Shown here: positions 5,993 to 12,368 of the stretch, one piece after another
Position numbering within the stretch: position 1 is the stretch's first letter
Layout of the letters: each line of letters begins with the position of its first letter
Origin: Escherichia coli
Lineage (GTDB): Bacteria; Pseudomonadota; Gammaproteobacteria; Enterobacterales; Enterobacteriaceae
DNA: 64,000 nt
NCBI RefSeq assembly: GCF_003334255.1
Contig: NZ_QOWU01000023.1
Strand: one strand, 5' to 3'
Notes under the pieces: model-generated
What the model was told of the DNA's origin: nothing
Seen by the model: only the letters and a program-made list of their open reading frames with translations
Databases searched by the model: none
Translations under genes and position numbers: made by a program

Positions 5993-6044
5993 ATAATCGC
6001 TTTTAGCGTGAAAAAGGGCTGACAACTGTCAGCCCTTATTGTTT

Positions 6045-8993: not shown

Positions 8994-9914
8994 TCAGTAA
9001 CGGATTTTCGGGTCGATAACCGCATATAGCACATCGACAATGGCATTAAACAAAATGGTTAAAGCACCAACCAGGATGGTCAGGCTTAACACTAAGGAAT
9101 AGTCACGGTTCAATGCGCCATTAACGAACAGTTGTCCAATCCCCGGCAAACCATAAATGGTTTCGATAACCATAGAACCGGTAATAATGCCGACAAATGC
9201 GGGGCCCATATAAGAGAGCACGGGTAACAGAGCAGGTTTTAATGCGTGACGTAAAATGATCCGCCGCATAGGTAACCCTTTCGCCCGGGCAGTACGAATA
9301 AAATTGGAGTGTAATACTTCAATCATAGAGCCACGGGTAATACGCGCAATACTGGCGATATAAGCGAGTGACAACGCCACCATCGGCAATATCATGAATT
9401 TAAGCGCCCCACCATTCCAGCCACCGCCCGGCAGCCAATGCAAAATGATCGCAAATATCATGACTAATAATGGTGCAACCACAAAACTGGGGATAACAAC
9501 CCCGGTCATTGCCAGCCCCATCACGGTATAGTCCCATTTGGTGTTTTGTTTTAATGCGGCAATAACGCCAGCACTAACACCCAGTATTACCGCAAGGAAA
9601 AATGCTGCGGCTCCCAGTTTGGCAGAAACGGGAAAACTGGATGCAACCAAGTCATTGACCGAATAATCTTTATATTTAAACGATGGACCGAAATCACCGT
9701 GCGCCAGTTGTTTCAGGTAGCTGAAATACTGTGTCATGATCGGATCATTAAGATGATATTTCGCTTCGATATTGGCCATCACTTCTGGCGGTAAAGTACG
9801 TTCGCCGGTAAAAGGGCTTCCCGGCGCGAGGCGCATCATAAAGAACGAAATAGTAATAAGAATAAATAGCGTCGGAATCGCTTCCAGACAGCGACGTAGA
9901 ATAAATTTTAACAT
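8994..9914 (-). CDS. oppB: Oligopeptide ABC transporter permease OppB
   Basis: 306 aa polytopic permease in opp operon. Confidence 0.92.
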   Translation of the reverse strand: MLKFILRRCLEAIPTLFILITISFFMMRLAPGSPFTGERTLPPEVMANIEAKYHLNDPIMTQYFSYLKQLAHGDFGPSFKYKDYSVNDLVASSFPVSAKLGAAAFFLAVILGVSAGVIAALKQNTKWDYTVMGLAMTGVVIPSFVVAPLLVMIFAIILHWLPGGGWNGGALKFMILPMVALSLAYIASIARITRGSMIEVLHSNFIRTARAKGLPMRRIILRHALKPALLPVLSYMGPAFVGIITGSMVIETIYGLPGIGQLFVNGALNRDYSLVLSLTILVGALTILFNAIVDVLYAVIDPKIRY

Positions 9915-9964
9915 TGCCCTACCTTCTGGCCTGTGCCTTCTGTAATGCGATAAAAATCAGACAC

Positions 9965-9991
9965 CGTGGAGCAGGACACTCCTGCCCCACG
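9965..9991 (-). promoter_or_regulatory. Stable stem-loop in the oppA-oppB intergenic region (likely mRNA stabiliser or partial terminator)
   Basis: Near-perfect GC-rich inverted repeat cgtggagcagg-acact-cctgccccacg just after the oppA stop. Confidence 0.55.
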
Positions 9992-9999
9992 TATTGCCA

Positions 10000-11631
10000 T
10001 TAGTGCTTCACAATGTACATATTCCGGGTATAGGTATTATCCAGCGGATCTTTGCCGGTATAGCCACCAACCCACGGTTTCACCAGACGCGCATTCACGT
10101 AGTAATAAACAGGAACAATGGCCGAATCCTTATCCAGCTGTTGTTCTGCTTTAGTGTACAGAGCTGTGCGCTGCGCCTCGTCAGTCACTTTCAGCGTTTC
10201 CGCCATAATGCTGTCAAAGGCCGGGCTCTTATAATGCGCGGTATTCATCGAGCTGTTCGAAAGCATGGTGTTCAGGAAGGAAGTTGGTTCGTTGTAGTCA
10301 GCACACCAGCCTGCACGGGCCACATCAAAAGTACCCTGGTGACGGGTGTCGAGGAACGTTTTCCACTCCTGGTTAACCAGTTTGACGTTTACACCAATGT
10401 TTTTCTTCCACAATGAAGAGGCAGCAATCGCCAGCTTTTTATGCAGATCGGAGGTGTTATACAACAGGTTGATGGTCAACGGTTTGTCTGCGGTATAACC
10501 CGCTTCAGCCAGCAGTTTTTTCGCTTCTTCGTTACGTTTTTCCTGGCTCCAGCCAAACCATTCTGGCTGAGTCAATTTTGCGCCATCAGTATACGGTGGA
10601 GTGTAACCATAGGCGGGCATGTCGCCCTGCGCTTTCACTTTATTAACAATGATATCGCGGTCCATACCTAGTTTCAGTGCGGTACGCACACGCACATCGT
10701 TGAATGGCGGTTTCTGGTTGTTAATTTCGTAATAGTAAGTGCACAGGTATGGATCAACGTGAACTTCGTCCGGGATCTCTTTTTTCAGCTTCTGGAACAA
10801 TTCGATCGGCATGTTGTTATACGTCATGTCGATTTCACCACTACGGTAGCGGTTGACATCGGTAACTTCAGAAGCAATAGGCAAATAGGTTACCTGGTTA
10901 ATAACGGTTTTCGCGTTGTTCCAGTAGGTCGGGCTGCGTTCAAGAACGATTCGTTCGTTTACGACCCAATCTTTTAAGGTATAGGCACCGTTGGTGACGA
11001 TATTACCAGGCTGGGTCCATTTTTCGCCGAATTTCTCGATAGCGGCTTTTGGCACCGGTGAAGTTGATGGGTGAACAAGTAATTTATAGAAGTACGGAAC
11101 GGGTTCACTTAAGGTGACTTCTAATGTGTGATCATCAATAGCTTTCACGCCGAGATCGGTAATCGGTTTTTTCCCTTCAAGAATTTCATCAATACCGGCG
11201 ATATGCCCATATTGCAGATAACTGGCATACGGAGAAGCAGTGTTCGGATCAACAGAACGTTGCCAGCTATACACAAAGTCTTGTGCTGTGACTGGCGTGC
11301 CATCAGACCATTTCGCATCTTTACGCAAATGGAAGGTCCAGACTTTCGCGTCTTTATTATCCCAGGATTCAGCGACGCCAGGTGCTGGATGACCGTCAAG
11401 ATCGCTGACCAGTAAGCCTTCAAACAGGTCTCGGCTGATATTAGACTCCGGAACACCTTCAATTTTGTGCGGATCTAATGACTGAACTTCTGAACCATTG
11501 TTACGTACCAGTGTTTGTTTTTCCGCCAGTGTGACGCCTGCGGGTACATCAGCTGCCAGCGCGACATTCCCTGCCATTAGCGCAGCCAGAACGCCAGCTG
11601 CTACTAAACTTCTCTTGGTGATGTTGGTCAT
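10000..11631 (-). CDS. oppA: Periplasmic oligopeptide-binding protein OppA (543 aa)
   Basis: Starts MTNITKRSLVAAGVLAALMAGNVALA (signal peptide); the track ORF is extended 24 codons upstream. Confidence 0.92.
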   Translation of the reverse strand: MTNITKRSLVAAGVLAALMAGNVALAADVPAGVTLAEKQTLVRNNGSEVQSLDPHKIEGVPESNISRDLFEGLLVSDLDGHPAPGVAESWDNKDAKVWTFHLRKDAKWSDGTPVTAQDFVYSWQRSVDPNTASPYASYLQYGHIAGIDEILEGKKPITDLGVKAIDDHTLEVTLSEPVPYFYKLLVHPSTSPVPKAAIEKFGEKWTQPGNIVTNGAYTLKDWVVNERIVLERSPTYWNNAKTVINQVTYLPIASEVTDVNRYRSGEIDMTYNNMPIELFQKLKKEIPDEVHVDPYLCTYYYEINNQKPPFNDVRVRTALKLGMDRDIIVNKVKAQGDMPAYGYTPPYTDGAKLTQPEWFGWSQEKRNEEAKKLLAEAGYTADKPLTINLLYNTSDLHKKLAIAASSLWKKNIGVNVKLVNQEWKTFLDTRHQGTFDVARAGWCADYNEPTSFLNTMLSNSSMNTAHYKSPAFDSIMAETLKVTDEAQRTALYTKAEQQLDKDSAIVPVYYYVNARLVKPWVGGYTGKDPLDNTYTRNMYIVKH

Positions 11632-12368
11632 TGTTTTTTGGACTCCCTCATTATAATTACTGGTATTAACCAGCATGTGTAATCCCGGATTGGGACCCTG
11701 CACAGGCTCGGAGACTTTCTGCTGTCAGGTTACTTTATCGTTACGTATTACTATCACCGACTTTATTTATTCTGGTGATTCAGACGATCACCTTATGTCG
11801 ATTCGTACTGTGTCTCCCCTGTCGAGACACATTATTCTTTCGCGACGCTCTTTAATTGTTAATTATTCTCATTACCAATAAAGAATCGTCTGGCGGTTGC
11901 CCGGAAAGTACCAAATGCGGTTCTTACTCGCCAATACATTTTGCAAAATTGTTAAGCAATTCTCTTTTATTGACCGTATCAGAATCTATAGCTTGCATCC
12001 ATGCCTTAACAAACATCTTTCAATTCAATCAAATAGAGATTGGCTAAGCATGTCTATCTTTTCTGATTACAGTTCCAGTAGTGAAATGCACAATAATTTA
12101 ACAATTGATTATTATTTAGCACTTTCCTCTACCAAAGGCAGTGGAATTACTAATATCATTTCAATTATTCTTCAGCAAGCCCAGGATTATGATGTGGCGA
12201 AAATAACATGATGGTGAGGAGAAGCAGTTAAGGAAATCCTTATAACTAACTGTAATTTGAGAAGAATATTTTTACCTATTCCTTTTGCTTTTGATAACTG
12301 CGCGGGAACAAAGTAAAAATAATGACGAAGTAAACGGAGCATGGCAGCTCCGTTTCATTTGAAAGGAA

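Follow-up and report, generated by a model that had tools for sequence, protein, structure and literature searches.

The stretch of Escherichia coli DNA analysed here (64,000 nt, referred to below as the window) carries the oppABCDF operon on its minus strand, a strand that had been left unspecified in the first-pass annotation of the region. The genes oppA, oppB, oppC, oppD and oppF all scored as NCBIfam equivalogs. For oppA, the open reading frame program had placed the start at a GTG at 11703, giving a protein of 567 aa, and the start used by RefSeq and NCBIfam is the ATG listed in Table 1. Read in the direction of transcription, the spacer that separates oppA from oppB consists of UGGCAAUA-CGUGGGGCAGGA-GUG-UCCUGCUCCACG-GUGUCUGAUUUUUAUCGCAUUACAGAAGGCACAGGCCAGAAGGUAGGGCA and is followed by the AUG of oppB. 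A 601-nt query covering the junction gave matches of 95-100% identity, annotated as oppA followed by oppB, in 5420 of 5426 complete E. coli genomes, with one copy of the junction per genome. In the coordinates of strain MG1655, to which the published Term-seq and Rho data discussed below refer, oppA ends at 1302813, the stem of the spacer hairpin occupies 1302822-1302848 and the run of five U residues that follows it 1302857-1302861. The window itself is not from MG1655, as positions 11704-12368 lack the IS5 copy that is present between ychE and oppA in that strain. The Salmonella opp operon was reportedly sequenced by Hiles et al. in 1987.

Table 1. Features at the oppA-oppB junction, in positions of the window.
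Feature	Position	Strand	Remarks
oppA	10000..11631	-	543 aa; start ATG 11631, stop codon 10002-10000
UGGC, 5' strand of candidate helix P0	9996..9999	-	directly after oppA stop, overlapping the invariant UAAUG; invariant in 78 loci
P1 hairpin	9965..9991	-	CGUGGGGCAGGA-GUG-UCCUGCUCCACG, 12 bp, GC-rich; arms 9991-9980 and 9976-9965, 3-nt loop GUG; from folding, covariation and strand asymmetry
Tail GUGUCUGA	9957..9964	-	site of mapped oppA 3' ends (+2, +4, +8); contains GUGUCU
GUGUCU, 5' strand of candidate helix P2	within tail 9957..9964	-	near-invariant across genera
U5 run	9952..9956	-	8 nt after stem; junction GA↓UUU coincides with +8 3' end
AGGCAC, 3' strand of candidate helix P2	9931..9936	-	pairs with GUGUCU in RNAalifold consensus
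GCCA, 3' strand of candidate helix P0	9925..9928	-	directly upstream of oppB Shine-Dalgarno; from RNAalifold
oppB ribosome-binding region GAAGGUAGGGCA	9915..9924	-	before AUG; almost invariant across genera
oppA-oppB spacer	9915..9999	-	exactly 85 nt
oppB	8994..9914	-	
C>G stretch	9719..9875	-	first ~200 nt of oppB; C/G ratio 1.07-1.44

The inverted repeat with an '11-bp stem' that the first-pass annotation had described between the two genes was essentially right. The hairpin, termed P1 here, has a stem of 12 bp, made up of 11 Watson-Crick pairs and one G.U pair; 8 nt separate it from the oppA stop codon and 50 nt from the oppB AUG. Its stability is far above chance: folded alone it reached -21.0 kcal/mol, compared with -7.6 ± 2.2 for shuffled sequences (z = -6.1), and none of 200 shuffles was as good, while the fold of the whole 85-nt spacer gave z = -3.8. 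A REP element was ruled out, as no match to the REP consensus was present in 9915-9999 when up to 2 mismatches were allowed, and the arm of the hairpin had no extra copies beyond chance in the 64-kb window. Covariance models from Rfam gave no hit to the spacer at E-values up to 10, and a promoter-like match on the plus strand at 9994-10023 was at chance level.

Conservation of the hairpin was assessed in 80 loci that encode OppB; they came from different species, most of them Enterobacteriaceae, and the oppA-oppB spacer was extracted from each. In 78 of the 80 the hairpin occupied the same position, beginning at a fixed distance from an invariant UGGCAA and ending one base short of a near-invariant GUGUCU, and the sequence of its stem differed by lineage (E. 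coli, GUGGGGCAGGA; Salmonella, CAUGGGAUAAC; Siccibacter, CGCGGGGUAA; Shimwellia, GCGGGACGGC; Pluralibacter, GAGGGGCGGC). Pairing was counted in two ways. In the first, which avoids circularity, the arms were set solely by fixed offsets from the two invariant flanking motifs; 92.7% of the cells were then paired, compared with 47-57% when the arms were slid, a value reached by none of 2000 permutations, and each of pairs 1-10 had changes on both sides. In the second, RNAalifold was run on 34 short spacers aligned with MAFFT and recovered the same P1 helix, for which a pair counter scored 97.6% of cells as paired and 8 of 10 pairs as compensatory, with none of 500 shuffles as high. Over both counts, therefore, 93-98% of cells are paired against 37-57% with the arms slid, with compensatory changes in 8-10 pairs. 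In Cedecea, Atlantibacter and others the apical loop of P1 is extended. The spacers of two loci, from an Erwinia MAG (L056) and from Winslowiella (L060), are without the enterobacterial motifs, yet both carry GC-rich hairpins right after the oppA stop, which suggests that the function has been kept despite the loss of sequence homology.

Across the loci G.U pairs occurred in P1 36 times and A.C only once, an asymmetry that places the constraint on the sense-strand RNA (the opp transcript) and excludes DNA or an antisense RNA as its target. This comparison of species shows P1 to be selected as a structure of the sense-strand RNA. A near-perfect inverted repeat in DNA might also be a palindromic protein site acting at the DNA level, a REP-type repeat or a chance palindrome, but we consider any of these barely conceivable at oppA. 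The G.U excess is expected solely for sense-strand RNA, and rules out both a DNA-level palindrome and an antisense RNA; the stem sequence, unlike that of an operator, changes freely while pairing is kept; the spacer has no REP consensus and the arm is single-copy in the window; and chance is excluded by the folding z-score together with the covariation.

The hairpin is GC-rich, as is expected of an intrinsic terminator, but in E. coli the sequence that follows it does not resemble a U-tract. The first 8 nt after the stem (GUGUCUGA) include 3 U, and the 8-nt windows that start 0-2 nt after the stem contain at most 4 T, below the threshold of at least 5 U in 8. The U5 run begins 8 nt from the stem, too far away to act as a canonical U-tract, and a terminator scan of the window did not list the spacer hairpin. 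At the end of the operon, by comparison, the hairpin after oppF (6014-6037) is a canonical terminator in which a U-run directly abuts the stem on the opp strand. The scan listed this oppF hairpin on the opposite strand too, so that it looks bidirectional, and the E. coli oppF 3' UTR consists of 9 nt plus the terminator. Among the 78 loci with the conserved hairpin, the tails of 49 were U-rich by a lenient rule (≥5 T in 8) and those of 29 failed it, as in Lelliottia (GGUGUCUAACCAACG) and Raoultella (CGUGUCUGAAUUC); all 78 keep the hairpin and GUGUCU, whether or not the tail is U-rich. The feature that is conserved is thus not U-richness, common though this is.

The 3' ends of oppA transcripts have been mapped by Term-seq in E. 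coli MG1655 (Adams et al., 2021; PMC7815308), where dominant ends, labelled 'primary', were reported in three conditions. In LB at OD 0.4 the end lies at 1302856, 8 nt after the stem; the other two are at 1302850 and 1302852, 2 and 4 nt after the stem, the respective conditions being, by the order of the tabs, LB at OD 2.0 and M63. All three therefore fall upstream of the U5 run, and the printed flanking sequences confirm this mapping. The first-pass annotation had named uniform coverage across the junction with no 3' ends at the hairpin as the outcome that would speak against its proposal; the published Term-seq data are the opposite, with ends in vivo at +8, +2 and +4. Ends that lie before the U-run and move with the growth condition are as predicted for exonucleolytic trimming to a barrier, and P1 in E. 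coli has several features of a protective stem-loop, namely a stable hairpin just 3' of oppA, published 3' ends at its base and no adjoining U-tract, the last of these holding for E. coli but not for all species, given the 49 of 78 with U-rich tails.

Alternatively, P1 together with its partly U-rich tail might be a leaky intrinsic terminator, release of a fraction of the polymerases 7-9 nt after the stem directly generating oppA-only transcripts. This is a real rival, above all where the tail is U-rich: P1 is a strong, GC-rich hairpin, the +8 end is within the distance from the stem at which intrinsic terminators release, the tail GUGUCUKAUUU is U-rich in many species (the 49 of 78 noted above), and gltI-SroC of the gltIJKL operon (PMC4474525) provides a precedent for a leaky terminator that follows the gene of a binding protein. 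On balance, however, we think it unlikely, though far from remote. With 3 U in the E. coli GUGUCUGA the RNA-DNA hybrid would not be weak, and the site fails the scan; in two of the conditions the dominant end, at +2 or +4, is too near the stem for release; the 29 species without a U-rich tail keep both the hairpin and GUGUCU; and the drop in coverage downstream, described below, is largely bicyclomycin-sensitive.

That drop is found in the Rho-termination table of the same study (PMC7815308), which has an entry at 1303199, 300 nt into oppB; this corresponds to window position ~9614, near oppB codon 100. In untreated cells the 800-nt windows on either side of this point held 532 reads upstream and 303 downstream, a ratio of 0.57, windows that do not separate events at the hairpin from those inside oppB. 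After bicyclomycin treatment the counts were 691 and 644 (ratio 0.93). The Rho score was 1.64 (p = 4e-8), which is modest, and with windows of 800 nt the position is coarse (PMC7815308). Upstream of this point, the C>G stretch at the start of oppB (Table 1) is, from its composition, a plausible Rho-loading region. When oppB is left untranslated in Vibrio cholerae, a Rho-dependent terminator near codon 115 of the gene is exposed (PMC7398697), a position that closely parallels codon ~100 in E. coli.

The idea, put forward when the hairpin was first noticed, that oppA and the downstream genes are differentially expressed through partial termination or 3' end protection is thus supported by the Term-seq ends at the hairpin and by the coverage ratio of 0.57. 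Between its two alternatives, the positions of the ends, the failed U-tract test and the Rho-dependent drop make 3' protection of prematurely ended or processed transcripts better supported than classical hairpin-driven intrinsic termination.

The junction GA↓UUU, where the +8 end lies, also fits the RNase E motif RN↓WUU (as quoted in PMC5927463). In Salmonella, TIER-seq placed 15 RNase E sites in the annotated oppB 5' UTR (PMC5222698, Table S4), a count that spans the spacer plus 225 nt of oppA. This 5' UTR is annotated as 346 nt long (SL1344 1796340-1796685, the orthologue of window ~9915-10225; PMC5222698), which would put its transcription start within the 3' part of oppA; if there is an internal promoter at this position, it would be a further contributor to oppB expression.

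In a genome-wide study of decay after rifampicin (PMC5927463), oppABCDF was in the set of operons analysed and was absent from the 47 operons found to decay differentially, although the criteria of that study may have removed the oppA-oppB pair. Selective stabilisation of oppA by 2-fold or more is therefore unsupported, and the hairpin does not have to extend the life of oppA mRNA beyond that of the remaining transcript. The lack of a called difference in half-life fits a model in which the excess of oppA mRNA comes from polarity and the hairpin just gives the short RNA a durable end. A literature search found no published experiments in which the oppA hairpin was deleted or weakened.

We therefore favour, with moderate confidence, a role for the hairpin as a barrier to 3' exonucleases that defines the stable end of oppA-only transcripts. 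In such a scheme RNA polymerase would read through P1 into oppB and some transcripts would end early, mainly by Rho-dependent termination ~300 nt into oppB, where ribosome coverage would be lower than on oppA, while others would probably be cut by RNase E in the unpaired, AU-rich segment just 3' of the hairpin (GA↓UUUUU). PNPase, RNase II and similar enzymes would then digest the unprotected 3' part and come to a halt 2-8 nt short of the stem base. As a result, capped and translatable oppA mRNA would exceed oppBCDF mRNA, so that more binding protein would be made than membrane and ATPase subunits. We infer accordingly that the oppA ends are made by trimming or cleavage and not by termination at P1, and that oppA mRNA would need the hairpin in order to accumulate. 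Weak intrinsic termination may contribute alongside the cap, as the two mechanisms can coexist. Such an element would explain how OppA is made in excess over OppBCDF from one promoter, a stoichiometry that ABC importers need.

The spacer outside the hairpin is, as judged from its conservation, under strong purifying selection. Conservation was 0.9-1.0 for UGGCAA, for GUGUCU and for the ~27 nt at the 3' end of the spacer (0.96-1.0 for the GUGUCU tail), compared with a mean of 0.68-0.69 at the third codon positions of the flanking 100 codons, of which 2-8% are invariant. The RNAalifold consensus contained three helices: P1 and the candidates P0 and P2, the latter two being formed by the pairs of short motifs given in Table 1. 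The UGGC and GCCA of P0 were present in all 73 scorable loci, so that this candidate helix is without any variation. For P2 the comparison provides limited support for pairing. At the pair flanking the 6-bp P2 of E. coli, 48 loci have U-A, 6 have A-U and 5 have G.U, and the E. coli clade has a G/A mismatch; an internal U.G pair is replaced by U-A in Siccibacter and by C-G in Franconibacter, and E. cloacae breaks one P2 pair. The loop of candidate P2 ranges from 14 to 166 nt across species, and insertions of 20-150 nt, which are evidently tolerated, are always in the apical loops of P1 or P2. When E. coli was folded alone, the minimum-energy structure of the spacer paired the bases of P0 and P2 differently.

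These features raise the alternative that the P0-P1-P2 RNA mainly sets the initiation of oppB translation, and hence Rho polarity, with 3' protection being secondary. It could do so by bringing the oppA stop beside the oppB ribosome-binding site for coupling, by leaving the Shine-Dalgarno sequence unpaired, or through the binding of a trans-acting factor. We regard this as improbable. The three helices of the consensus, spacer blocks that are 0.9-1.0 conserved against 0.68 at synonymous sites, the covariation of the P2-flanking pair, the change of the internal U.G to U-A or C-G and the confinement of insertions to the P1 and P2 loops are all in keeping with it, and in Vibrio a block to oppB translation in this very spacer triggers Rho termination (PMC7398697). 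However, P0 and most of P2 are invariant, so that their conservation may reflect sequence and not structure; the E. coli clade has a mismatch at the P2-flanking pair, and in one species another pair is broken; the minimum-energy fold of the E. coli spacer differs; and there is no known trans-acting factor, Rfam family or OppZ-like partner.

A more general possibility, that the spacer is a conserved three-helix module with an additional function dependent on sequence, is suggested by the conservation and the predicted helices, but we regard it as improbable. In its most far-reaching form, likewise improbable, the near-invariant UAAUGGCAA, GUGUCU and AAGGCACAnGCCAGAAGGUACGGGCA may be read by a ribosome-linked or trans-acting factor that sets oppB translation and hence Rho-dependent polarity. 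If this were true, the OppA:OppBCDF ratio would be adjustable and not fixed, and the spacer would be an enterobacterial counterpart of the Vibrio OppZ circuit.

The oppA stop codon overlaps an AUG (UAAUGG), an arrangement invariant in 78 loci. In E. coli this AUG opens a 30-codon ORF (9908-10000, minus strand) whose final UAA overlaps oppB codons 1-2. This ORF, which bridges the spacer, is probably not a gene, since neither its frame nor its length is conserved even within Escherichia; reinitiation at UAAUGG would still unwind the hairpin.

The protective barrier that we favour at oppA resembles several known systems, and differs from each. Among them are the intercistronic stabiliser between malE and malF in malEFG and the class of protective 3' hairpins defined by Dar and Sorek (2018; PMC5927463). 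As in opp, the hairpin of this class follows a first gene that encodes the binding protein, 3' ends lie just downstream and there is no adjoining U-tract; the outcome, an excess of mRNA for the binding protein, would also be the same; the latter study described protective hairpins without U-tracts and reported that in ABC transporter operons the stabilised gene is always that of the substrate-binding subunit (PMC5927463). However, the malE element is a REP repeat and the opp hairpin is single-copy and not REP; the half-lives in the mal case differ by ~3.5-fold, whereas opp was not called differentially decaying; and at opp it is Rho-dependent polarity inside oppB that appears to supply the truncated transcripts. 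The opp hairpin also resembles the Rho-dependent ends trimmed back to a stem-loop (Dar and Sorek, 2018 NAR), which, as that work is summarised in PMC7815308, show a bicyclomycin-sensitive drop downstream and stable ends at an upstream hairpin without a U-tract, both as at opp. The ends of this class, in the same summary, are mostly at the ends of transcription units, whereas the opp example would be inside an operon, between cistrons, with the trimming itself deduced.

The leaky terminator between gltI and gltJ (PMC4474525) is in the same place, after the gene for a binding protein, and gives a monocistronic mRNA together with read-through; the authors explicitly state a general principle for ABC importers. 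It has, however, a genuine U-tract and yields the Hfq-binding sRNA SroC, while the E. coli oppA hairpin is without a U-tract and its ends are without a U-tail. In the Vibrio cholerae OppZ system (PMC7398697) the operon and the spacer are the same, reduced translation of oppB exposes a Rho terminator ~100-115 codons into the gene, and the outcome is discoordinate expression of oppA and oppBCDF. Control in Vibrio needs the sRNA OppZ, which comes from the oppF 3' end, and the hairpin is not part of the OppZ mechanism. An sRNA circuit of this type was ruled out for E. coli, as the oppF 3' end is no more complementary than background to the ribosome-binding region of oppB: the best duplex was no better than those of shuffled sequences (103 of 300 as good) or of other opp segments.

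Mechanisms of this class have been textbook material since malEFG. The oppA hairpin is thus already known in kind, its 3' ends are in published E. coli Term-seq tables, and the present finding is mainly confirmatory. What is added is clear covariation of the oppA hairpin across genera, the argument that the data are better explained by Rho polarity in oppB combined with a 3' cap than by termination at the hairpin or by differential decay, and the strong purifying selection on the remainder of the spacer. The sole mildly new point looks to be the spacer as a whole, as a conserved three-helix module with near-invariant motifs.

Among the insertions in the P2 loop, Salmonella (L021 and L036) and many other species carry an extra hairpin. 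Three Citrobacter loci (L042, L053 and L054) have an insertion of ~110 nt in this loop (spacer upstream of locus position 1201), which we take to resemble an ERIC/IRU repeat.

Upstream of the operon, OppX, a sponge for MicF, has been reported from the oppA leader in Salmonella, and its existence in E. coli is disputed; as it derives from the oppA 5' UTR and not from the oppA-oppB spacer, it was rejected as an identity for the hairpin. On the minus strand at ~11895 of the window (MG1655 1300918/1300921), ~260 nt 5' of the oppA start codon, there are strong Term-seq 3' ends classed as 'orphan', which may belong to an oppA leader fragment.
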